Shown here piece by piece: positions 3,999-59,813 of a stretch of DNA of 64,000 nucleotides. The translations under genes were made by a program, and so were the position numbers. The first letter of the stretch is position 1. The number at the start of each line of letters is the position of its first letter. The stretch spans positions 1,504,001-1,568,000 of the forward strand of contig CAWFQB010000001.1 of assembly GCA_963817895.1 (NCBI GenBank), written 5' to 3'. The DNA comes from an uncultured Chthonomonadaceae bacterium (GTDB taxonomy: Bacteria > Armatimonadota > Chthonomonadetes > Chthonomonadales > Chthonomonadaceae). The notes under the pieces were generated by a model. It searched no databases. It worked only from the letters and a program-made list of their open reading frames with translations, and was not told the origin of the DNA.

Positions 3999-5944
3999 AA
4001 ATGATTCCGTTTGTCATTGGGGCCTCGATTGTCGCGTTCGTTCTGTACCGCGTGTGGCGCACGGGGCAGAAACCGAACTGGCAAAGCGTTGCCAATCGTT
4101 CCGTTTTTGGCGGGCTGCTGCTGCTCTTTTTAATACTGGCGGGGGCCATCTATGCAATCAACAAATACCGGCGTCCTGGTTCCATGACGCCCCTCGAAGC
4201 GCAGACCATGCAAATGGAACTGCCCGCTCCTGCCGGAATCGCGCCCGTCGAGCTGGCGACCGCGCATCTTGGGCGTATCGAAAACACGGTTCGCTATACC
4301 GGGCAGGCAGTGGGGTTTGTGGAGCAGGACGTGACGCCGCGTATCACCGGCACGATCATTGAAATGAGCGCGTACGCCGGGGATCGCGTTCGTCGGGGAC
4401 AACTGCTGGCGCGATTGGATACCAGTCAGGCCGCGCCCCTCGTGGCGAATCAGCGGGCGGGAGTGAACATGGCCGCGCAGAGCGTAGGCGTTGCAAGGAA
4501 AGAGTACCAGCAGGCGCTTGCCGCTATCAACGAAGCCCATGCCGAAGTGGGCATGAAAACGGGAGCGGTGACAAGCGCTCGCGCCGATGTGACAGCCGCG
4601 CAGGAGGAGCGCGCCAACGCGCAGGCGCAAGCGGAAGCCGCGCAAAGCATGAGCGGGGATGCCGACGCGCAAGTACAGGCGGCGCAGGCTGACTGGCAAT
4701 ACTGGCAAGATGAGATCAGCCGGGAAGCCACCCTGCTCAAAGCCGGAGCCGTCACGCGGGAGGAGTATCAGCGCGAACGGGCACAGGCGGAAAACGCGGA
4801 CGCCAAAGCGCGGCAGGCGCAGGCGCGTATCACACAGGTACAGGCGCAAATCCGGGCAGCGCAATCGGCAGTCCGCAAGGCCGAGGCCATGATCGCGTCC
4901 GCGAAATCCAAAGTGGAACAGGCCCAGTCCGAACTCAATTCCCACAACGCGCACGTCCTCTCCACACAGGCGGCGGCGGACTCGGCGCGGCAGAAAATCG
5001 TACAGGCCGAAGCGGGGGTTGCGCAGGCGCGGGCAACCCTTGCGGGCGCGTCCGCCGCTCAGGGGTACAGCGAAATCCGGGCGCAGACAGATGGCGTAGT
5101 CACGCAGCGCGTCGTCAGTCCGGGCGTGCTGGTCAATCCGGGTCAGGTAATTTTGCGCGTGGCGCAGATTTCCCCCATTCGGTTGCAGGCCAATGTCACG
5201 GAGGGCGATCTGGCGCGGATTCGCATCGGCAGTCCCGTTCGGGTCATGGGGCAGGGCGGGACAGGAACGCCCCTGTCGGCGAACGTCACGTCCATTGCGC
5301 CCGCTATTGACCCTGCCGCCCGAACCGGAATCGTGGAGGCCGTTGTTCCCAATCCCAACGCCCGCTTTCTGCCGGGGCAGTACGTCACCCTCGACATTGC
5401 TACGGGCAGCAATCCTAACGCGCTTCTCATTCCGACGTGGGCTATTGGCTACCACACGACTCCATCCGGCGGTGTAATCTCTACGCAGGCTACGCCCTTT
5501 GTCTGGATTGCCGAACAGGACGCGGGGCAGGACGGGCAATATCTGGCCCGCGAAGTTCAAATCACGGTCGGCTTGAGCGACGGGCAGAACAGCGAAGTCC
5601 GTTCCGGCTTGAAAGCGGGGCAAAAAGTGATTACAGCGGGGCAGGACTACTTGAAAGATGGGGACGCGGTTGCTTCGACTGAAGCGTTGGCGTCCGCAAC
5701 GGCTACGCCCATTGCGCCGAGAACGAATACCGGCGGAATGGACTCCATGCCCGGTATGAATCATGCCGCTTCCGGCACAGCCGCAACGCCCCAACGTCCG
5801 ATGAACGCGCCTCCCGTTACGGCCATTCCCAACGCGGCGAAAACGCTTTATACCTGCCTGATGCACCCCGACGTGGTTCAGGATCATCCCGGCGACTGTC
5901 CGAAATGCGGCATGAAATTGGTTCCGAAAGGGAGGGCGAGATGA
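3995..5944 (+). CDS. RND periplasmic adaptor (MFP) with a C-terminal heavy-metal-binding domain
   Basis: Lipoyl-like halves (GDRVRRGQLLARLD, IRAQTDGVV) flank a long coiled coil. A Met/His linker precedes YTCLMHPDVVQDHPGDCPKCGMKL. Confidence 0.9.
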   Translation: MKMIPFVIGASIVAFVLYRVWRTGQKPNWQSVANRSVFGGLLLLFLILAGAIYAINKYRRPGSMTPLEAQTMQMELPAPAGIAPVELATAHLGRIENTVRYTGQAVGFVEQDVTPRITGTIIEMSAYAGDRVRRGQLLARLDTSQAAPLVANQRAGVNMAAQSVGVARKEYQQALAAINEAHAEVGMKTGAVTSARADVTAAQEERANAQAQAEAAQSMSGDADAQVQAAQADWQYWQDEISREATLLKAGAVTREEYQRERAQAENADAKARQAQARITQVQAQIRAAQSAVRKAEAMIASAKSKVEQAQSELNSHNAHVLSTQAAADSARQKIVQAEAGVAQARATLAGASAAQGYSEIRAQTDGVVTQRVVSPGVLVNPGQVILRVAQISPIRLQANVTEGDLARIRIGSPVRVMGQGGTGTPLSANVTSIAPAIDPAARTGIVEAVVPNPNARFLPGQYVTLDIATGSNPNALLIPTWAIGYHTTPSGGVISTQATPFVWIAEQDAGQDGQYLAREVQITVGLSDGQNSEVRSGLKAGQKVITAGQDYLKDGDAVASTEALASATATPIAPRTNTGGMDSMPGMNHAASGTAATPQRPMNAPPVTAIPNAAKTLYTCLMHPDVVQDHPGDCPKCGMKLVPKGRAR

Positions 5945-8900
5945 GAATTACCGATACTAATGAGACGCGCCCCGGAAACAATTTGGCCCACAAACAGAAC
6001 GCGCTTCATGCGATTCACAAATGGAGTATCAAGCATCCGTATGCCGTAATCGCGTTTTACGTGGCGATGGTCGGGCTGGCGTGGATGACGGTTACCGGCT
6101 CGATGCCGCGCCGGTTCGCGCCGTATGTGGAAAGCCCGCAGATCGGCGTTGTCACGATGATGCCGGGGCTATCCGCGCAGGAGATGGAACTCTACGTCAG
6201 CAATCCCATTGAGCAGCAGATGGTGAACGTAAAAGGGCTGCGCTATATCCGGTCGAACTCACAAAACGGGTTCAGCATCGTCACGCTGGAATTCCCGTAT
6301 GGCGCGGACATGCAGAAGGCGCTGACCGATGTGCAGGCGTTGATGAATGTCACGCAATCGCTGCTGCCCGCAACCGGGGCGAACATGAAACCCTCGTGGG
6401 TCGTGCCGATTGACCCGCTCAACCTGCCGGTTCTGACACTGAGCGTACAGGGCGATCCCAAACTGGGCTGGGACATGGCGCGGGTTCGGGAGTTTGCGGA
6501 TAACACGGTTATCAACCGATTAAAGGCCGTGCCGAGCGTGTACTCGGTTGTGCCGTTCGGCGGGTATCGGCGGCAGATGCAGGTGATCGTCGACCGGGAA
6601 AAACTGGCGGCGTACAAACTCTCGATTCTGGATGTCCGCAACGCCATTGACCGCTCCAATGTGACGCGGCCCGCCGGAACGCTGACGAACGGCGCTCAGG
6701 AGAGCATCGTTCGCGTGGACACCCGCGCCCGCAAAGCGCAGGACATACTCGATTATCCGATTACATCCGTAGCGTCCGAGCAAATTGCCTCCACAGGTGG
6801 GACAAACGGCGGTAACGGCGGTTCGCAGAGCAGTATGGGGAGTGGCATGAGCGGCGGTTCAGGCGTTGTTACCCCCGCTATTGCGGCCCAATCTGGAACG
6901 TCAGCCCCGTCGCGCTCCCCGCGTGTTGTGTATGTGCGGGACGTGGCGCGTGTGGTGGATACCCAGTGGGAACGGCGCAGCGGCTACCACTACCTGAAAC
7001 ACGATCCGGGCAAGCAGGCCGAAACCCTGCCTTCTATCGAAGTCTCTGTTCTCCAGAACCCCGGCGCGAGTTCCGCGCAGGTCGTGCCGGAAGTCATGCG
7101 GGTTGTTCAGCAGTTAGAGGCGGAGAACCCCGGCCTGCATTTTGAAACCGCTTATGACAACGCGCATTTCGTCAATATCCTGTTTCACAACGTCTGGGAA
7201 GAGCTGGCGATTGCCGTTCTGCTGACGGGCGTTGCCGTGTTGTTCTTTCTGGGCGAGTGGCGCGGCACCTTGATCGCCATGATTACCCTGCCGACAGTCC
7301 TGGCGATTGCCGTGCTGATGATGGTTCCGTTCCGCATGACCTTCAACAGCGGCACGCTGATCGGATTGTTGCTGTCCATCGGGCGGCTGGTGGACGACAG
7401 CATCATCGACATTCACGCCGTCGAGCGGCATCTGCGCATGGGCAAAGATCCCAAAACCGCCACCATTGACGGCATCGCCGAAGTGCGCGTCGCGGTGATC
7501 GCGTCCACTCTGATGATTGTTCTCGCGCTTTCGCCGCTGCTGTTTTCCGGCGGCATCACGCAATTGATGTTCAAGGAGTTGGTGTGGCCGCTGATTTTCG
7601 GCCTGCTCGCCTCCATGCTGGTCTCCTTCACGCTGACCGCGCTGCTGTGCGCCAACCTGCTGCGCCCCGAAAGCGCCCGCGAAGCCGACCGCGAGCATTG
7701 GCCATTGCGCTGGCTGTACGTGCTGCTCGACCCGTTTCAGCGCTGGCTTCGACCGCTTGGAAAGCGGGTACGGACGCGCGATCCGCTGGATGCTCAAGCA
7801 CCGCTTCGCCAACTTCGCCCGCGTCCTGGCGACGCTGATCTTGGGCATGACCTTCTACTATTTCATCGGCAGCGAGATGATGCCGCTTGCCGATGTGGGG
7901 CAGGCGAACGGCTTTCTGGAAATGGCTCCCGGCACGTCGTTTGCCGAAACGGAACGCGCCGTCGAGCCGGCTGGAGCAGATCATGGCGCAGATATCCCGA
8001 ACTGGAAAAGGCGAGCGTGGAAATCGGCGCGGAAAGCATGTTCGAGATCTTACAGCCCTACTACACCGGCTACCAGATGCCGCAGGTGAACGGCGCGTCC
8101 ATGATGCTGACCTTCAGCGACAAGGACAGCGCAAGCGCACGCATCTTGGAGATCATGGACGCCGTGCAGAAGGAGGCGCTGGCGACCATTCCCGGCATCC
8201 GGCGCTTGCAGATCAAGGAGATGGGCAGCGACGTGATGGCGACGGCGGCCGCGCCCGTTCACGTCAACCTGATCGGCCCGGACCTGGCGAACCTGGACCG
8301 GCTTGGGCAGCGAGACGCTTGGCAGTCGCGCAGAAAATGCCGGAAATGTTTCAGCCGGCGACGACCTGGACGATGGGGCTGCCGGATGTATCAGATCAAG
8401 GTGGACCCGCAGCGGGCGCAGGAGGTGGGACTGACGCCGGAAAGCATCTCCGAGCAGGCGTACTATGCCCTGAGCGGCGGGCTGACCAACGAGTTTTATC
8501 GCCTGCCCAACCTGCGGCAGGACACGATTCAGGTGCGCTACGAGGAGAAGGATCGGGCCACCGCGCAGGATCTGGAAAACCTCTATATCTGACGACGCCG
8601 GACGGGCGGCAGATCCCGCTGAAATCCGTCGCGACCGTCGAGCACGACGTGGCTCCCACCGTCATCGAACACGACGGCTTGAAGCGCGTCATCGGCATCA
8701 CGGGCTACTACCGCATCGGCAATCTGCCTTCGATGGATGTGGTGATGAACCTGGTCGCCAACGTCTATCGCGGGCAATCCGACAAACTGAGCGTCGCGCC
8801 GGTCAATTTCCCGCCCGGCTACGGCATGGAGATGCGCGGCGACATGAAGGAGATGATGAACTCGTTCCGCCGCATGATGTGCGGGCCTGACGCTCGCGCT

Positions 8901-31138: not shown

Positions 31139-32554
31139 TTACGCCGCTTTGAGCAGGGGCAGGCCCTCGCGTTCGCCGTTTGCTTCCGCGCAGGCGAGGC
31201 GGGAAAGCGGTTCGGACTGGCGGAAGTCGCGGGGAAAGACCGCGCTGCCGACGCCGAATCTCACAAGTGGTTTTAAGCCCTGCCAGCCCTTTTCCGACAG
31301 CCAACTGCCCAGGTTCTGCTCGATGCGGCGCGTGACGACATCCACGCTTTCCCCGGTAAACGGCAGAATGCAAGCGAATGTCTGCTCGTCGTAGCGGGTG
31401 AGTATGTCCACGCGGCGCATGCTGCGGCGCAGAATGTCCGAGGTTCCCGTCAGCGCCTCATCCCGCTTCAGCGTTCCCTGCGTTCGCGCCAGATTTGCCA
31501 GCCCCTCCAGACGGACGAAGATGACCGACATATCCGTACCCGTGCGACTGGCGCGGCTCACCTCCTCCTGCAAACGGTTGTCGTAGTAGCGGCGATTGTA
31601 CAGGCGCGTCAGATCATCCACAATCGGCGTCTGGTCTATCTGCGCCTGCTGCGTCTCCAATCGCTGCCGCATGTGCGTCAAGTGTAGTTGTGAAGTCCGC
31701 AGTTCGTCCGTATTCAGGATGTTCTTTAGTTTTTTGGTCGCGTTGCGCAGGATATGCGATACATAATTGCAGGAAATGCCCATTTGCCGGGCGATTTCGG
31801 TCTGGTTCAGGTCCTTGAAATAAAAGGCGAACAGGACGTGCTGTTCCAGTTCCTTTAGTTTGAGCATCGCGGTTTCCAGCACGATGCGATCTTCCACCGG
31901 CAACTGGAAACTGGTGGAGGGGTCGCTGCGCTGTTTGCGGTCTATGTCAACCGTGTTGCCGCTGTCCTCCTCGCTGTCCGTGCCGCCGTCAATGCTCGAT
32001 ACCTTGAACACTTCGCGCGTCATCATGAGGTCCGTGACCGCCTCTTCAGTCATGTCCATCATGCGTGCGATTTCAAGATTGGTGGGCGGGCGGCTCAACT
32101 GTTGGCCGAGCGCGGCTATGGCGCGCGTCATGCGCTGGTTCAGTTCCTGCAACCAGGCAGGCTCCTTGATGATTTTGCCCCGGTCGCGCAGGCAGTGCTT
32201 GATCTGTCCAATGATAAAGTGCGTTGCGTATGTGGAGAACTTGACTTTTTTCGCCGGGTCGTACAGGTCTATGGCTGTCAGCAGGCCGATGTAGCCCTCC
32301 TGCGCCAGATCCTCCACGGGTTCGGAAGCCCCGGCAAATCGCCGCGCGATGCTTTCCACCAGATTGGCGTACTGCGCGACAAGCCGTTCTCTCGCTTTCG
32401 GGTCGTGTTTTTGGCGATATGTCAGCAACAACGCCGCCGTATTCTCCTCCTGACGTTTGCGCGTCATGGCAATATCAGGGGTCGTCATGTCCCGTGTCTG
32501 AAATTGATTTGCTATCGGCATTGCTCCCTGTTGGACGCGCGCCTTCGTTCCCAT
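31139..32554 (-). CDS. SigB/SigF-like sigma-70 factor fused to a degenerate GGDEF domain
   Basis: Region 2 EDLAQEGYIGLLTAIDLYD...FSTYA and region 4 LNQTEIARQMGISCNYVS, then DDLTRLYNRR and RRVDILTRYDEQTF. Confidence 0.88.
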   Translation of the reverse strand: MGTKARVQQGAMPIANQFQTRDMTTPDIAMTRKRQEENTAALLLTYRQKHDPKARERLVAQYANLVESIARRFAGASEPVEDLAQEGYIGLLTAIDLYDPAKKVKFSTYATHFIIGQIKHCLRDRGKIIKEPAWLQELNQRMTRAIAALGQQLSRPPTNLEIARMMDMTEEAVTDLMMTREVFKVSSIDGGTDSEEDSGNTVDIDRKQRSDPSTSFQLPVEDRIVLETAMLKLKELEQHVLFAFYFKDLNQTEIARQMGISCNYVSHILRNATKKLKNILNTDELRTSQLHLTHMRQRLETQQAQIDQTPIVDDLTRLYNRRYYDNRLQEEVSRASRTGTDMSVIFVRLEGLANLARTQGTLKRDEALTGTSDILRRSMRRVDILTRYDEQTFACILPFTGESVDVVTRRIEQNLGSWLSEKGWQGLKPLVRFGVGSAVFPRDFRQSEPLSRLACAEANGEREGLPLLKAA

Positions 32555-33038
32555 CGTACGCGACGCGCCCCTGGCTTTCTTTGACCCCGCAATTCATCCG
32601 TGCTTGCGAAGACGGATTGATTATTGCCAGAAGTGGGAAGCGGCTAGAGACCTGCCGCGAATTCCGATTCTTTAGCCGTATTTTCACTCTCTTTTGCTTC
32701 AAATTCCGAATTCCGAACACCGAACGCCGTTTTTTTCTGGTAGAATGAAGCAGAACGCTTAAAGTTAAATTAAGTATTCCTGCGGGCTGATACGAGGAGG
32801 GCGCGAAATATACGCTTGCTTCTCCCGCAACAAAACCGGACGCCCCTTTGCCGCGTAGTGTCTTACGCGCTTGCGCGTATTCTGTTTGGGTTTGGCGCGT
32901 TTGTGTTTGACGCGCATGTGCATCGGCGCAATTTCCGCCAGGTTATAGCCATACAGGGTTCTCCCCGGCGCAGGGTTTCCATACTCGAACCCGCGTCCCG
33001 CCCTGTGCGCCGTTTGTGCTGAAAGGAGTTATGACAAC

Positions 33039-37710: not shown

Positions 37711-37784
37711 GGGGGTGTAGCTCAGTTGGTTAGAGCGCCAGCCTGTCACGCTGGAGGTCGCGGGTTCGAGCCCCGTCATCCTCG
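37711..37784 (+). tRNA. tRNA-Asp(GTC)
   Basis: Cloverleaf with anticodon arm CCAGC-CTGTCAC-GCTGG and T-loop GGTTCGAGCCC. Confidence 0.97.
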
Positions 37785-37808
37785 TTCTTGATAGTTCTTG
37801 CTAAATGG

Positions 37809-37843
37809 TGAGGCTTATAGTACAAAACTATGAGCCTCATTTT
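37809..37843 (+). terminator. Terminator after the tRNA pair
   Basis: TGAGGCTTATAGT/ACTATGAGCCTCA followed by TTTT. Confidence 0.7.
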
Positions 37844-38311
37844 CACGTTTAGAGTGTTCCCCGTCACCTATTGCGCCCCCGTAATATAGCGCTACAAACA
37901 GGAACCGGAAAGCGGCAAACGCTTCGCCGATTTTCTTTGCCCTGCTTTACTGCCTGCCAATGCAACCGTCGTTTAGCACAACAGCCACAAGAGCGCCGTC
38001 AAGCGTTCTCTATGGCTGATTTAGCGTGTAAAACTCTCCTTGCGCTATGCGTGACTCGTGGATTTAAGGAGAGGCATCAGAACGGCCTGAATGTCGGCGG
38101 GAACAGATGCAGGCGAACGGTTTCCCGGTTTGCGTTCCAGGCAGTTTTTGCGCGTGATGTATTTTCTTCAACATCGCGGGCTTTTCTTTTTTGACACGGC
38201 AGGAGTATCGGCGGAAACTTCTGCCATCAACCAATCAGCCACAGGCCGCATGTTCGCGGTTCCTGTGGCTGTTGTCTTTGCAGTCTCGATTAGGAGCGTT
38301 CTTGCAGTCGT

Positions 38312-38980
38312 TTACGCGGCTTTGCTGGCAGTCTTGCGACGGCGCAGGAAGGCGGCTCCGGTGAGGCTCAGTCCGGTGAGGAGGGCGATGGAGCCGGGTT
38401 CGGGAACCGGAGCCACAGTTACCCGAATGTTGTCATAGTAGACGCTGTTCGGAAAGGACGTGCCGCCGCCAATCAACGTAATGCTGAGGATGTTGGAGGC
38501 CGACACAGAAATGGTATCAAAGATAGGAAGGGAGGTATTGCCGTAGTTGTCGCTTCCTGTCCCCAACAGAGTGCCGGTTCCATTCAGACCGCTAAAGGCA
38601 TTAAGTGTGAAGGTGTCGCTATCCCCGCCAAAATCGCCATAATCCAGACTGACGGAAGACAAAGGAGCGGAAAAGTTGACCACAAACGGGGTTGCACTGG
38701 ATGAATCGTTGAACGGAGAGAGACTGTGGTTGCCAAAAGTAGCGGGGAAGGAGCCTGCGGGGGCAGTCGTTGTGTCCACAATATCAAACGCGCTGCCGGG
38801 TCGGGTGAAGGTGGCGGTCACGCCCCCGCTGGTTTGTGGCAGCGTTGTCAGGCTGCCGGGAAAGCCGCTACCGAAAGTGGTTGTAGCCGTTGCCCCCTCA
38901 AAATTGAAGGTTTGCGCCTGCACAGTGGAAGCGGCGGCAAGAGCGCAGACAGTGACGAAGGCCAGTTTAATGAAGCGCAT
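38312..38980 (-). CDS. PEP-CTERM protein 1
   Basis: Signal peptide; C-terminal VPEPGSIALLTGLSLTGAAFLRRRK. Confidence 0.93.
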   Translation of the reverse strand: MRFIKLAFVTVCALAAASTVQAQTFNFEGATATTTFGSGFPGSLTTLPQTSGGVTATFTRPGSAFDIVDTTTAPAGSFPATFGNHSLSPFNDSSSATPFVVNFSAPLSSVSLDYGDFGGDSDTFTLNAFSGLNGTGTLLGTGSDNYGNTSLPIFDTISVSASNILSITLIGGGTSFPNSVYYDNIRVTVAPVPEPGSIALLTGLSLTGAAFLRRRKTASKAA

Positions 38981-39061
38981 GAACGAGTCTCCTAGTTAAG
39001 ATTAGTGAGAGAACACAGAAGCGGGGAGGGTATCAAAAAGACTACCGTTACCTCTATGTAT

Positions 39062-39077
39062 TGCAAGATTTATGCCA
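39062..39077 (-). promoter_or_regulatory. Sigma54 -24/-12 promoter of PEP-CTERM 1
   Basis: TGGCATAAATCTTGCA on the minus strand. Confidence 0.8.
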
Positions 39078-39341
39078 AACTGCCACGTTTGCGCCCTGTG
39101 CCTCACTTTTTCTGCAAAATCCCGCATTTCTCCAATGGAGAATACTTCTTGTAGACGCCTTTGCGTTCACATAAGAGGACGTACAAACATGCGGCTTGCG
39201 GCTTTGGCGGGGCAGTGGCTAGAATGGAGAGGGCTATAACGCGCAACGTGAACGGTGACAGCGCGACAACAGGCCCTTACCCGGTGACAGCACAACGCTT
39301 CAACAGCGAACAGTTCAGATTGAGGACGGCGAAAGCGGCAG

Positions 39342-39406
39342 TCAGTTGGTTAGAGCGCCAGCCTGTCACGCTGGAGGTCGCGGGTTCGAGCCCCGTCATC
39401 CTCGTT
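39342..39406 (+). repeat. 65-bp exact copy of tRNA-Asp lacking its 5' end (att-like)
   Basis: Identical to 37722-37786; the first 11 nt of the tRNA are missing. Confidence 0.92.
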
Positions 39407-40188: not shown

Positions 40189-40445
40189 AACTGCCACTTT
40201 TGCGCCCTTTGCCTGAAAATCTACCAAGCTTTCTGATAAAAACTGGTAATGAAGAAGGGTTTCGCAAATTGGAGAAACTTCCGTAGACACAAACTTACGC
40301 ACATAAGGGACTGTACAAACATGCGGATTGCGCATTTCTCGATATAGTGGCTAGAATCCGGGCGGCTGTAAGACGCGGCTTCTGCGACCATTCCTGAACA
40401 CATGGAACGTAATGGGTTACAGTGTGGCAACAGACGGCTAATTTC

Positions 40446-40496
40446 AACGCGTAAAGGGCGCGGGCAGAAATTTTCTGCCCGCGCCCTTTACGCGTT
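40446..40496. repeat. Perfect palindrome with 25-bp arms (REP-like or terminator downstream of rsr)
   Basis: AACGCGTAAAGGGCGCGGGCAGAAA-T-TTTCTGCCCGCGCCCTTTACGCGTT. Confidence 0.8.
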
Positions 40497-40570
40497 ATGC
40501 CCCGATTAGCGACCCCAATAGGAATCAGACTGCTGCTTCAAACGGCCCGCTTGTCTGTCTGCTCACTTTC

Positions 40571-42202
40571 TCAGATACGCCCTGCCGCAAACTCGGAAAT
40601 AACCGCAGGCGCGCTCGTATCGAACCCTACCAGATCGAGCATATTGGGGTTGTTGGGATCGGCGATGCTGAATTCATTGGACACCATGCCGACGACTATC
40701 AGCCGGGCGGCTATGCCCATCTTGTCCTGATACTGCTTTAGCGCCTGCACGGGGTGAACCTTTCCCGCGTAGGTTTCGCTATCAGTAAAGATAACGAAAG
40801 CGTCCGCCTCCACCTTGTTTTGCATGGCCCAGACCATAGGCAGGGAGCAGTCGGTTCGGTCAAACGGCATTCCGTTCATACGGGCGGTCACAGCATCCAG
40901 ACACTCGTTCCTGCCGACTGCGAACGGAACGAACTTGTTGGAAAACGCCATTGTCGCCACGTTGTTTTCCACCCGGTTCGTTGCCATTGCCATCGCCGCC
41001 GTTCCGATGCGCGGCGTGATACCCGGCATTCCCGCAATCAGGCCCCCGGCCATCGAACCGGACACGTCCAGCCCCAACACGAAGCGCATACCGGTTGGCG
41101 CAATCGCGTCGAACGCCATGTAGAAGGCGGCATCCAGCGCCTCCACCACTTTGGGTATCACCGGCCATTCCCCGTTGCCCCGGATGCCGCGCCCACTGCT
41201 GTACGTGTTCAGAGCCACCAGCAGCGACAGGGGGTGAACTCGCCCGCGCCGTATCTGTTCCCCGTCCGTCAGCCGAGCGATAACCGCGTTCAGGTTGCTG
41301 TACTGGCCTTCGGCAATCGCGCCGGTCTTGCTCAGGTTGCTCAGGTTGCGCAGCAGCCACGTCATGCCCGCCGAGGGAATCAGCGCCTCATAGACCGCCT
41401 TGCTCCGCTTCTCCGACGGCACACACTCCATCGGCAGGCGATAGGTCTGGATCAGGTGAACCAGTTCCTTCTCGTCGGCTGTTTTGGCGCGTTCTGCCGC
41501 CCATATGATTTGCAGCGCCTCATTTTCATGTGGAACGATCCCGACACCCGGCCAACTGTCCACCATGTAAGAAAAGATGGCGTTGCGCGTGTCACTGGCT
41601 GCGGCAATGCCCTGATTACGCGCCTGAACGTGCGCCAGTCGCAGCATGTCGGCGTGCGCCCACCCTCGCGCTGCCGATACTTCACCGCCTGAAGCGCCAG
41701 CACGGCCTCAGTCTTCTCCATATACCAGTGGGAAATCGCCTTGCGCAGCCCCTTGCCCCATCCGCGCAGGGCGTTGACGTAGCGGGCGTACTCGAACAGG
41801 TGCGTTCCCGTCCGCGCTACGCGAGGCAGGGCGGCAAACGCCGACTGGCGCGTCCGGTCATCGCCGGTTGCCGAACACAGCGCGAGCGCGAACAGGGCAG
41901 GCGAGTTCTTTGCGGCGCGGCCCGTATCGGAAATCTCCACAATCATGGCAACGGCGCGCGCTCCGTCTTCCGCAATCGCGGCAAGAGAAGCCGCCATGTT
42001 GTCCCGCGTGAGTTTCTGTTCACTGAGCATAGTACGAGCCGCCCTCCGAGCCGAGAATCAGAAAGCGATGCAGGCGGGTGAAGTTGTCTACCGCATAGAC
42101 GTAGCCGCCCGCGTCGTTCTTCACCTGGTTTGCGCCGGGAATGGGATCGGTCTGCGGGGTTGCCTTCGGGTTCAGGATGTTGTTCAGATACGCGGTAGAC
42201 AT
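40571..42202 (-). CDS. rsr: Ro60/TROVE-domain protein with C-terminal vWA domain (frameshifts near 42025 and 41660)
   Basis: QVKNDAGGYVY, RFLILGSEGGSYY, VARTGTHLF, RGWGKGLRKAI, KYRQREG, MLRLAH, GLDVSGSM, FTDSET, LDLVGFD. Confidence 0.95.
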
Positions 42203-42226
42203 GAGTTTGCTTTCAGATTGACAGGT

Positions 42227-42318
42227 CAGTCGAGACAAGTGGCGCGTTGCGTTTTTTCTTAAAGGCTGGTATTCACAGCGCGTTAAGCCATGAGAACACA
42301 ATGCTGCGGCCCCGACTG
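42227..42318 (-). ncRNA. Y RNA-like hairpin 3
   Basis: CAGTCG-GGGCCGCA...GTTCTC...ACTTGTCT-CGACTG; ends 24 nt before the rsr ATG. Confidence 0.78.
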
Positions 42319-42325
42319 CAAAAAT

Positions 42326-42395
42326 GGGCGGAGACAAGTTGATTGAAGCGCGGCTTTCTTTTTGGATGAGAACACACTTCATTCGGCCCCCGCCC
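42326..42395 (-). ncRNA. Y RNA-like hairpin 2
   Basis: GGGCGG-GGGCCGAA-TGAAGTGT-GTTCTC...GCGCTTCA...ACTTGTCT-CCGCCC. Confidence 0.8.
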
Positions 42396-42404
42396 GTACA
42401 GAGT

Positions 42405-42479
42405 TTCGCAGACAAGTGAAATGTCGGGCGAGCATTTTATCTTAATAGGATAACGCTCTGTTGACGTTCGGCCCGCGAA
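42405..42479 (-). ncRNA. Y RNA-like hairpin 1
   Basis: TTCGC-GGGCCGAA...GAGC-GTTATC...GCTC...ACTTGTCT-GCGAA. Confidence 0.8.
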
Positions 42480-42687
42480 CACAGCGGAATGGTGATAGAT
42501 TGGCGGTCTGTCTGTTCCAATTTCATTTGCACAGAACTGAAGTTGTCGCCACTTGCATAAGAGACAGTCTGCCGCCGCGAAAAGTTGCGCCATCAGTTCG
42601 CGCTTATACACTGTTATCCGTATTGTTGCGGTTTCTGCTCCGTAGGGTTGCGGGAGTTGGGCTGATGAGAGGCAAAAAGGCTGCGGT

Positions 42688-42703
42688 TGGCACGGTTCTT
42701 GCA
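42688..42703 (+). promoter_or_regulatory. Sigma54 promoter of PEP-CTERM 3
   Basis: TGGCACGGTTCTTGCA, a consensus match. Confidence 0.85.
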
Positions 42704-42769
42704 ACTAACGCACTGTACCGCCGGCTATTGGCGGGATAAAGTTTCTCATCTGAAAGGTTTTCTCTTTAC

Positions 42770-43480
42770 ATGAACGTTCAAACTCTCAAGACGCTATCCG
42801 TCACATCCATCGCTGTTCTGATGATGGCCGGTGGAGCGCGCATTAGTCAGGCGCAGTCCAACTTTATTGACACTAATATCGACCTCAACTACGTCAGCAC
42901 CGCTTCCGGTTCGCCCACCGTAATATCCTCCGGCAACAGCATCAATGTGTCTTATACGTCCGGCGATTTTTACAATATTAACGGCGCGGGCGCGTCCGAT
43001 GCCGACACGCGGGATGGTTCGGGCGCGGGCGCGTTTATTCGCCTGACCCCTGCCGGCAACGGGCTGCGGGAAACCAGTACCCAGAACGCCGGGATGAACA
43101 CGTCCCTGATCAACTACCGCTTCGACATTACCATTCAGGATGTTTCCAGCGGTATCAGCCAGTTGGTAAGCCTGCCGTTCCAGTTCAACAATGCGTTCAA
43201 AGAGGGCAGCAACGGCGGCGACGGCGTCCCGGCGTTCACGCTTCCCAACCCCACGCAGATCGGCAACAACCTCTACACGTTCTCCGGCTTCGCGTTCACG
43301 CCCGCCAGCGCGCCGCGAACAACGGGTGGCACATCGGCAACAGATGGCTCGTTCGGTTTGCGCGTACAGGCCACGCCGGTTGCGGTTCCCGAACCCGGCG
43401 CGGTTGCCACGCTCGTCGGCATGGGCATGACCGGCGCGGGTTTCCTGCGCCGCCGCAAGTCTGCGCTAAAAACCGCCTGA
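42770..43480 (+). CDS. PEP-CTERM protein 3
   Basis: Signal peptide; VPEPGAVATLVGMGMTGAGFLRRRK. Confidence 0.93.
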   Translation: MNVQTLKTLSVTSIAVLMMAGGARISQAQSNFIDTNIDLNYVSTASGSPTVISSGNSINVSYTSGDFYNINGAGASDADTRDGSGAGAFIRLTPAGNGLRETSTQNAGMNTSLINYRFDITIQDVSSGISQLVSLPFQFNNAFKEGSNGGDGVPAFTLPNPTQIGNNLYTFSGFAFTPASAPRTTGGTSATDGSFGLRVQATPVAVPEPGAVATLVGMGMTGAGFLRRRKSALKTA

Positions 43481-58771: not shown

Positions 58772-59813
58772 ATGAACGTTTACGATGGATTGGAGGCGGT
58801 CACGACGCCGTTTCCCGCCTCTTCGGTGGCTATTGGAACTTTTGACGGCGTACATGTCGGGCATCAGGCGATTATTCGCGCGGCGGTGGCGGATGCGCAG
58901 CGTCACGCGCGCCCCGCGCTGGTTTTTACCTTCGACCGTCACCCGGCGGAACTGTTTGCCCCGGAACACGCGCCCGCCCTGCTGACCACGCCCGAACAGC
59001 GCAATACGTTGATTGCTGAATTGGGCGTGGATGGGCTGGTTATCGCGCATTTCGATACCGCGCTGGCGCAACTATCGCCGGATGATTTCGTACAGCGTAT
59101 TCTGAAAGACAAACTGGGCGCACAGGCCATTGTGGAGGGCGCGAACTTCTGCTTCGGCAAGGACCGGGCGGGCAATGTGGCGTATCTGCAGGCCGCGCAG
59201 TCGCAGTACGATTTTACCCTGACCGCGCTGGAACCCATTATGGCGGCGGGAGCGCCGGCAAGCAGTACCCGCATCCGCGAGGCGCTGCGGGCGGGCGATG
59301 TGGCCTTAGCGGAAACCGTTTTGGGACATGCGTATCAGCTTGTCGGCACAGTCGTAGGCGGGCAGCAGTTGGGCCGGACATTGGGCTACCCGACCGCCAA
59401 TCTGGAACTGACGCTATCGGCAGGCGGTTCCCGGCGATGGCATTTACGCGGTTGTCGCTACGCTCGACGATGGCCGCAGGGTTGGCGGGGCATGCAGCAT
59501 CGGGGAACGCCCGACGGTCGAGGGCGCGGGCCGCTCGATTGAAACGTATCTGCTGGATTTCGCGGAAGATATTTACGGGCAGCAAATGTCGCTGCGCTTC
59601 GTGGAAAAGTTGCGCGACGAACTGCGCTTCGCTTCGCTGGCCGAACTCACCGTCCAAATGGCAAATGACGTGACGCAAACCCGCTATATTCTGGCAGAAA
59701 AGAAATTTGGGATGAGACATCAGCCCTTATCCTTCGCACAAGGAGGGGAGCGCTTACATTTAAGGGGGACGAAGGCTTTTCATAATCTCTTTTCTCGAAT
59801 GAATGGGGAATAA
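58772..59813 (+). CDS. ribF: Bifunctional FAD synthetase/riboflavin kinase (indels near 59415-59435; 3' end uncertain)
   Basis: IGTFDGVHVGH, SSTRIR, GRTLGYPTAN, then GIYAV, IETYLLDF and LRDELRF in another frame. Confidence 0.93.

Follow-up and report, generated by a model that had tools for sequence, protein, structure and literature searches.

What are the three small hairpins that precede the Ro60 gene (rsr) of an uncultured Chthonomonadaceae bacterium (Armatimonadota)? They are found in a stretch of 64,000 nucleotides (nt), hereafter the window (GCA_963817895.1, contig CAWFQB010000001.1, positions 1,504,001 to 1,568,000), and the window coordinates given below count from its first letter. 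An earlier reading of the letters without database searches, hereafter the sequence-only reading, took them for a tandem array of minimal Y RNAs. The hairpins belong to a conserved, covarying RNA family that accompanies Ro60 genes, and we suggest that they are Y RNAs, likely cut from a single transcript that would also bear rsr, and that each would bind the Ro60 ring through a helix with a bulged C. Taken as a whole, we regard this proposal as quite probable.

Anatomy of the array

The three hairpins (U1 to U3) lie head to tail on the minus strand, directly 5' of the rsr ATG and 24 to 277 nt upstream of it. All of them repeat the same order: closing stem, GGGCCG(A/C)A, inner stem, GUU(A/C)UC, variable loop, inner stem, ACUUGUCU (ACTTGTCT in DNA letters) and closing stem.

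42405-42479, minus strand: U1, 75 nt; closing stem TTCGC/GCGAA, GGGCCGAA, inner stems, GUUAUC, hairpin loop CUAUUAA, ACUUGUCU
42326-42395, minus strand: U2, 70 nt; closing stem GGGCGG/CCGCCC, GGGCCGAA, inner stem of 9 bp, GUUCUC, A-rich loop, ACUUGUCU, then AUUUUUG
42227-42318, minus strand: U3, 92 nt; closing stem CAGTCG/CGACTG, GGGCCGCA, GUUCUC, longer apical insert with an extra hairpin, ACUUGUCU
42203-42226, minus strand: spacer between U3 and rsr, 24 nt, ACCTGTCAATCTGAAAGCAAACTC; the Shine-Dalgarno-like stretch GAAAG is only weak, and the ATG is at 42202-42200

U1 and U2 are separated by ACTCTGTAC (9 nt), and U2 and U3 by ATTTTTG (7 nt). The coordinates and the description given in the sequence-only reading (three minus-strand units of 70-92 nt, less than 10 nt apart, the last one 24 nt from the ATG) proved exact to the base.

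The predicted minimum free energy folds reproduce these hairpins, with -23.4 kcal/mol for U1, -31.7 for U2 and -31.5 for U3. The corresponding z-scores are -3.05, -4.48 and -2.57, and shuffled sequences folded as well in 1, 0 and 5 out of 200 cases, respectively. In all three units C9 stays unpaired between G8 and C10. The pattern GGCCGNA-N30-60-ACTTGTC is found twice in the window, against 0.02 expected, and two or more occurrences were found in none of 100 shuffles. Across the 7.48 Mb genome a stricter pattern recovered only U1 and U2, with no match for the reversed-pattern control; U3 escapes it solely by a loop one base beyond the permitted gap. A loose regular expression lacking the closing-stem test gave 196 matches in the genome and was uninformative.

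A family of hairpins beside Ro60 genes

Related sequences were investigated in 61 genomes, that of the window and 60 related ones, with a Ro60 match found in 11 of the 60 relatives (12 from 61 genomes overall). By regular expression, similar units with different closing stems were found adjoining Ro60 in 3 of the 11 Ro60-positive relatives. The seed of a first covariance model (R1) comprised U2 and three units of two relatives, with the structure set by hand; in two of the four, the inner stem is misplaced by one column. The seed was limited to these four alignable units, since MAFFT, applied to the 8 and then to 5 units found first, misaligned the loops and 3' ends with respect to structure. 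R1 matches lie beside rsr in 10 of the 12 loci, always on the rsr strand and either just upstream or just downstream of the gene.

The set of Ro60 loci consists of 80 from 565 confirmed loci, fetched by Ro60 protein alignment (A4), and covers Chthonomonadales and other Armatimonadota, Chloroflexota, Abditibacteriota and a few other taxa; one of these loci (L019) comes from the same contig of a family-mate genome (G017) as L004. With R1 (E<=0.1), 72 matches were found in 48 of the 80 loci, of which 71 share the strand of Ro60, 63 being upstream of the gene and 8 downstream. The model's own realignment of these 72 matches (A5) was used for conservation and covariation. A second model (R2) was rebuilt from the 72 R1 matches in the Ro60 flanks of other genomes, without any sequence of the window. 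A covariance-model search of Ro60 flanks, of the kind that the sequence-only reading had proposed as a check, recovered the family beside Ro60: R2 (E<=0.01) gave 176 matches in the 80 loci, 172 on the Ro60 strand. Considering the best 150 of these 176 matches, units are present beside Ro60 in at least 64 of the 80 loci, with 1 to 5 units per locus and lengths of 60 to 183 nt (median 81); U1 to U3 are among the smallest members. The spacers between units measure 0-16 nt in the relatives.

In the window, R2 recognises U2 (56.8 bits, E 3.8e-10), U3 (40.1 bits, E 1.6e-06) and U1 (28.8 bits, E 4.5e-04). The next-best match in the window reaches 13.4 bits and is the bare GC hairpin core at 40446-40496, on both strands. 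In the 7.48 Mb genome the only further match among those listed has 18.7 bits (E 8.5). When whole genomes were searched with R2 (E<=0.01), the family was found in 9 of the 61 genomes, all among the 12 that are Ro60-positive, and in none of the 49 Ro60-negative ones; 20 of the 21 matches are on the contig bearing rsr. The association with Ro60 genes is exclusive in this set, and it contradicts a motif scattered genome-wide with no link to TROVE genes, which the sequence-only reading had named among the findings that would count against it. In two genomes of the same genus (G001, 97% complete, and G002, 91%), we were not able to find either Ro60, with a query of 358 amino acids (aa), or the RNA family, indicating that the module of rsr and Y RNAs is patchy within the genus.

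The four matches on the strand opposite Ro60 (L039:4134-4252, 4438-4501 and 6292-6351, and L072:4219-4342, all on the minus strand) lie downstream of Ro60 and possibly represent a second, convergent locus. Rows of tRNA genes of ordinary length are also found directly upstream of Ro60, on the same strand and beside Y units, in four loci (L020:139-489, L026:1150-1942, L036:1-1002 and L037:375-1468). They recall the Yrn2-tRNAAsp-Yrn1 transcript of Deinococcus radiodurans.

Covariation and conserved blocks

In the 72-row alignment, 93.9% of the pair cells hold standard pairs, against 40.5-46.4% with the partners slid. Changes on both sides were found in 17 of 20 pairs, corresponding to 8 of 11 in the helix with the bulged C, hereafter the handle, and 9 of 9 in the inner helix. 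Five covariation measures were taken, and none was reached by any of 500 shuffles. The sequence-only reading had noted that the closing stems of the three units differ in sequence yet each pairs; this is confirmed for the window and holds across the family.

Sequence is free to vary in the five outer pairs and in the inner helix, and conservation is concentrated in four blocks: G6 G7 G8 C9 C10 G11 R12 A13; G21 G22 G23 UUAUC; the CCC that pairs with G21-23; and ACUUGCCY. Within the first block, G7 is kept in 65 of the 72 rows, G8 in 66, C9 in 69 and G11 in all 72, while A12 is found in 40 rows and replaced by G in 24. G11 pairs with U in 67 of the 72 rows, and C9 is bulged. Rsr protects G7, G8, C9, G11 and A12 of D. 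radiodurans Yrn1 (Chen 2014, PMC4201824), and the conserved nucleotides of the family are equal to these in identity and number. Every conserved handle position is kept in U1, U2 and U3.

Comparison with known Y RNAs

Bacterial Y RNAs lie up to 4 kb from Ro60 on the same strand (PMC4201824), and U1 to U3 have this placement, on the strand of the TROVE gene and within about 4 kb of it. Near the 5' end, the published RNAs have the motif GNCGAAN0-1G, after which YrlA shows a conserved YUAY (PMC4201824). GNCGAAN0-1G is exact in two of the three units (U1 GCCGAACG and U2 GCCGAATG), with one mismatch in U3 (GCCGCAG). YUAY is present in U1, and a YUAY-like block is found across the family. Both the predicted folds and the family covariation indicate that the 5' and 3' ends pair into a stem holding the Ro-binding nucleotides.

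It is very likely that the three units are bacterial Y RNAs and that, like YrlB and Yrn2 and unlike YrlA, they are of the simple-hairpin type. As described in PMC4201824, YrlB and Yrn2 also stand beside rsr, on the same strand and with other Y RNAs; they are long end-paired hairpins with a small loop and a Ro-binding motif near the 5' end, and come from polycistronic precursors in Mycobacterium smegmatis and D. radiodurans. The likeness is judged from their description, and there are differences: each characterised species has one such unit, whereas here there are three with no tRNA-like companion. Moreover, non-YrlA Y RNAs had eluded bioinformatic discovery, with variants expected in bacteria that have Ro60 and no YrlA candidate (PMC4201824), while the present family can be found across phyla with a covariance model.

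With YrlA (RF02553) the units share the 5' motif of GNCGAA type, the position beside rsr and the block that follows, since their GUUAUC corresponds to the YUAY of bacterial YrlA (PMC4201824) and is also present in YrlA-like members of the family. These long members carry a T arm, an acceptor-like hairpin and a D arm in YrlA order, so the handle is common to a recognised Y RNA architecture. The units of the window have neither a T nor a D arm. As the sequence-only reading had observed, they show no tRNA-like domain: neither the T-loop motif (G[GT]TC[GA]AN[TC]C) nor the D-arm motif (TAGC[TC]CA) was found in U1 to U3, no T-loop motif was found in 42530-42203, and the Rfam tRNA model has no match on the minus strand at the locus. 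YrlA also does not exceed the Rfam cut-off in any of the 61 genomes or in any of 20 related loci. Its best match in the genome of the window has 29.6 bits, against a gathering cut-off of 69 bits, and lies away from the array. A single species of Armatimonadetes is listed in PMC4201824 (Table S1), Fimbriimonas ginsengisoli, and its putative YrlA is 382 nt from Ro60.

The units had also been called metazoan-like. This applies to the Ro-binding helix alone, which keeps both strands and the bulged C; both strands of this helix are kept in Deinococcus as well as in metazoan Y RNAs, while in those of Salmonella and mycobacteria only the 5' strand is recognisable (PMC4201824), so the trait is also a Deinococcus one. 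The same two-stranded conserved helix with a bulged C is seen in Yrn1, although the units do not have the T arm of Yrn1. According to PMC4030889, the bulged C9 is the main determinant of Ro60 binding in human Y RNAs, and a conserved helix with a bulged cytosine, as described there for metazoan Y RNAs, is present in all three units. The 5' strand GGGCCGA is one base off the vertebrate GGUCCGA quoted in PMC4201824. As with human Y1, Y3, Y4 and Y5 (PMC4030889), there are several paralogues differing in their loops. On the other hand, no Pol III features apply here, and the units are in tandem with spacers of 7-9 nt instead of being separate genes. The GUUAUC block presumably also resembles human Y1.

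The comparison with the Rfam Y_RNA and YrlA models, also put forward in the sequence-only reading, gave no match to the units. Rfam 15 reported the family under no model. At the array, only matches to SNORD110, mir-1184, bxd_2 and HOTTIP_1 were found at E<=10, and these are attributable to chance. The published work on bacterial Y RNAs that we found comes from the Wolin laboratory, and neither this family nor these phyla are described in its titles or abstracts. Several Y RNAs upstream of rsr, simple hairpins and metazoan-like handles in bacteria are all in print, and the array is an addition to this published kind.

The rsr gene and its frame breaks

The gene 3' of the array is Ro60/Rsr, as the sequence-only reading had stated, with the Pfam domains TROVE and vWA_Ro60. 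As assembled, it is in three pieces, its frame being broken twice, by an extra base near 42026 and a missing base near 41662.

42020-42202, minus strand: rsr piece 1, from the ATG at 42202 to an in-frame stop at 42022-42020; tblastn, 47/75 identical to the Ro60 of L004
41452-42030, minus strand: rsr piece 2, in the second frame; TROVE (1.5e-09); 75/120 identical to the Ro60 of L004, with homology ending near 41662
40571-41647, minus strand: rsr piece 3, again in the first frame; vWA_Ro60 (5.4e-62) and TROVE (2.4e-11); 233/364 identical to the Ro60 of L004; TGA at 40573-40571

By tblastn, the three pieces are 63-64% identical to the intact Ro60 of the relative and contain no further stop. Among the public runs listed as sharing part of the stretch there is one, X1 (0.07 of words), made of DNA contigs of relatives, and none is recorded as RNA. 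The contigs were aligned at 85% likeness, 26 of 32 pieces being less than 95% alike; they differ by exactly one base at both breaks, with one fewer at 42026 and one more behind 41662. Other genes of the assembly are affected as well. rpoC is divided between two frames (G000:C3:352734-357250), and ribF has a frame break at about 59411-59421, where the Flavokinase profile is matched from 1 to 30 in one frame and from 34 to 123 in the next. The assembly is 81% complete by marker genes despite having just 14 contigs. The rsr breaks are probably assembly indel errors, since rpoC and ribF are frameshifted too, the contigs of relatives are off by one base at each site and completeness is low for so few contigs. 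Gene calls in this genome need to be read with an indel-prone assembly in mind.

Transcription and a possible mechanism

A single transcript would start upstream of U1 and run through rsr to a palindromic hairpin at 40496-40446. Cleavage in the A/U-rich spacers of 7-24 nt, followed by trimming to the closing stems, would release three RNAs, and binding by Ro60 would protect the mature molecules. A polycistronic precursor is plausible because the spacers of relatives are only 0-16 nt and there is precedent in M. smegmatis, where a single precursor upstream of rsr yields both YrlA and YrlB, and in D. radiodurans, where Yrn2-tRNAAsp-Yrn1 is polycistronic (PMC4201824).

42492-42520, minus strand: promoter candidate TTGGAA-N17-TATCAC, which would start transcription a few bases before U1
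40446-40496, minus strand: near-perfect palindromic hairpin with arms of about 24 bp, 75 nt beyond the rsr stop and not followed by a U-run

One low-depth contig of a relative skips 42482-42613, the region of the promoter candidate. Terminator-like sites number 3, against a shuffle mean of 2.9. The hairpin at 40446-40496 is likely the end of the transcription unit; other possibilities are a protein site and a bidirectional terminator. A GCGGGCCG resembling the 5' strand of the handle is found at 40543-40550 on the minus strand, some 20 nt beyond the rsr stop. It was not counted as a unit, having no matching 3' strand and no R2 match.

As judged from published work on Ro60 and Y RNAs, the handle (G6 G7 G8, bulged C9, C10-G, G11.U and A12-U) would bind the outer surface of the Rsr ring. 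The apical part, made of the GGUUAUC block and the unit-specific loop, may be an effector or gating module, either a tether to a partner such as PNPase or a control of access to the cavity, and three units would give three differently equipped Ro60 particles. A tether of this kind is described for Yrn1, which joins Rsr to PNPase according to bioRxiv 10.1101/312249.

Alternative explanations

The hairpins could act mainly in cis, as a 5' leader that lets Ro60 bind the mRNA it is made from and control how much of it is made, instead of as stable trans-acting RNAs. An autoregulatory leader had been suggested in the sequence-only reading, and the position of U3, only 24 nt before the ATG, agrees with it, as do the 15 of 63 upstream R1 matches in which the last unit ends 19-51 nt before the Ro60 match, and the absence of terminator-like sites on the minus strand between the units and rsr. 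However, 8 of the 71 same-strand R1 matches lie downstream of Ro60, as do the units of L005, L006, L009 and L011, and many units are 500-1500 nt upstream with tRNA genes intervening. Y RNAs already published from this position are stable and bound by Rsr (PMC4201824). We do not favour a leader as the main role and consider it unlikely, although the units may act as a leader besides being Y RNAs. The frame breaks and the patchy distribution, with neither Ro60 nor the RNA family in the same-genus G001 and G002, could also be signs of a decaying relic, in which rsr would be a pseudogene with two real frameshifts and the hairpins functionless leftovers. This seems quite unlikely, considering that the pieces keep 63-64% identity with no other stop, that the two indels restore each other's frame, and that the relatives' contigs, the split rpoC and ribF and the completeness point to the assembly; the three units also keep the whole conserved handle. 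Finally, these could be generic structured elements such as terminators, REP-like repeats or mobile-element ends, present near rsr by chance. The GC-rich closing stem of U2 followed by AUUUUUG would fit a terminator, and a 65-nt direct repeat of the 3' part of tRNA-Asp, 1.2 kb beyond rsr, is a sign of past integration nearby. Nevertheless, there is no other copy above 18.7 bits in the genome and no match in the Ro60-negative genomes, nearly all family matches share the strand of Ro60, and the blocks are conserved across phyla and equal to the Rsr-protected nucleotides, making this explanation highly improbable.

Several observations weigh against our proposal that the units are Ro60-binding Y RNAs cut from the rsr transcript. 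The covariation was counted on a model-fitted alignment, which leans towards structure, although the margin is large, and U2 was one of the four R1 seeds, so the sequence of the window shaped the recruitment into the 72-row alignment (U3 was in no seed). U2 and U3 read UUCUC where 66 of the 72 family members have A, and U3 departs from GNCGAA (GCCGCA). Neither published model recognises the units: YrlA has no match at the gathering cut-off in the window or at E<=10 on 266 and 901 bases, and Y_RNA (RF00019) has none at E<=10 with lax filters on the same 266 and 901 bases, so the metazoan likeness does not extend to the Rfam model. The TTGGAA/TATCAC promoter proposed in the sequence-only reading is present at 42520-42492 and fails a consensus scan of 40300-42900, which found no promoter-like site. 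Should the two frame breaks of the assembled rsr be real, this organism makes no partner protein. It is by analogy that PNPase is put forward as a partner and that roles are assigned to the apical loops.

tRNA-shaped relatives and wider meaning

Among 34 matches of the tRNA model in the related loci, 13 are 106-126 nt long, with normal acceptor, D and T arms. Four of these long RNAs were examined, and all have an insert of about 50-65 nt in place of the anticodon arm.

L031:1566-1685 and 1788-1896: tRNA-shaped RNAs
L028:2186-2310: tRNA-shaped RNA
L024:1964-2085: tRNA-shaped RNA

Their Rfam tRNA scores are 35-45 bits. The insert, read in sequence for L031 (Capsulimonadaceae), is the handle inside out: ...CUUUGUCU/CUUGCC, a short cap, GGGCCG..., and then GGUUAUC. 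A strict pattern recovered 23 tRNA-shaped RNAs with the handle from 18 of the 80 loci; every one is on the strand of Ro60, and the window has none. Upstream of Ro60, they and minimal units alternate, and in L031 about seven elements stand upstream of rsr. We found no description of this inside-out topology in the published Y RNA literature that was searched.

It may be, and we propose this only tentatively, that the Ro60 of some Armatimonadota runs on a cassette of minimal Y RNAs alone, with an invariant handle, swappable heads and no tRNA mimic. The same handle would be portable, being found in YrlA-like RNAs and, in inside-out form, at the end of the anticodon arm in tRNAs that otherwise look ordinary; these would be matured as tRNAs and would load Ro60 onto the tRNA body. 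If true, a minimal-only cassette would break the rule of a tRNA-like Y RNA in every Ro60 bacterium. Until now, immunoprecipitation in three species has been the main source of non-YrlA bacterial Y RNAs; they become searchable with R2, which recognises the Ro-binding handle itself. The small units of the window would be convenient substrates for binding and structural work on the handle and on the contacts of the invariant GGUUAUC. For this organism, the locus is an ordinary module of Ro60 and Y RNAs and not a new system.

Neighbouring genes and other observations

The immediate neighbours encode PEP-CTERM proteins, a glycosyltransferase and a polysaccharide-synthesis protein; neither rtcB nor rtcR is adjacent, as the sequence-only reading had noted. 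The 3' part of tRNA-Asp(GTC) is present as a perfect direct repeat of about 65 nt (39342-39406 and 37722-37786, both on the plus strand), with a weak partial Rfam tRNA match at 39340-39396. The repeat resembles the scar left by integration of an element at tRNA-Asp, and it brackets only 1.55 kb with one PEP-CTERM gene. We rejected rsr as part of an island, since the repeat has only two copies, bracketing 37787-39341 with rsr outside, and the GC content is not distinctive. On the minus strand at 31142-32593, sigma-70 regions 2-4 and GGDEF are found in one frame of 484 aa, the product either of an unusual fusion or of an assembly indel that merged two genes.

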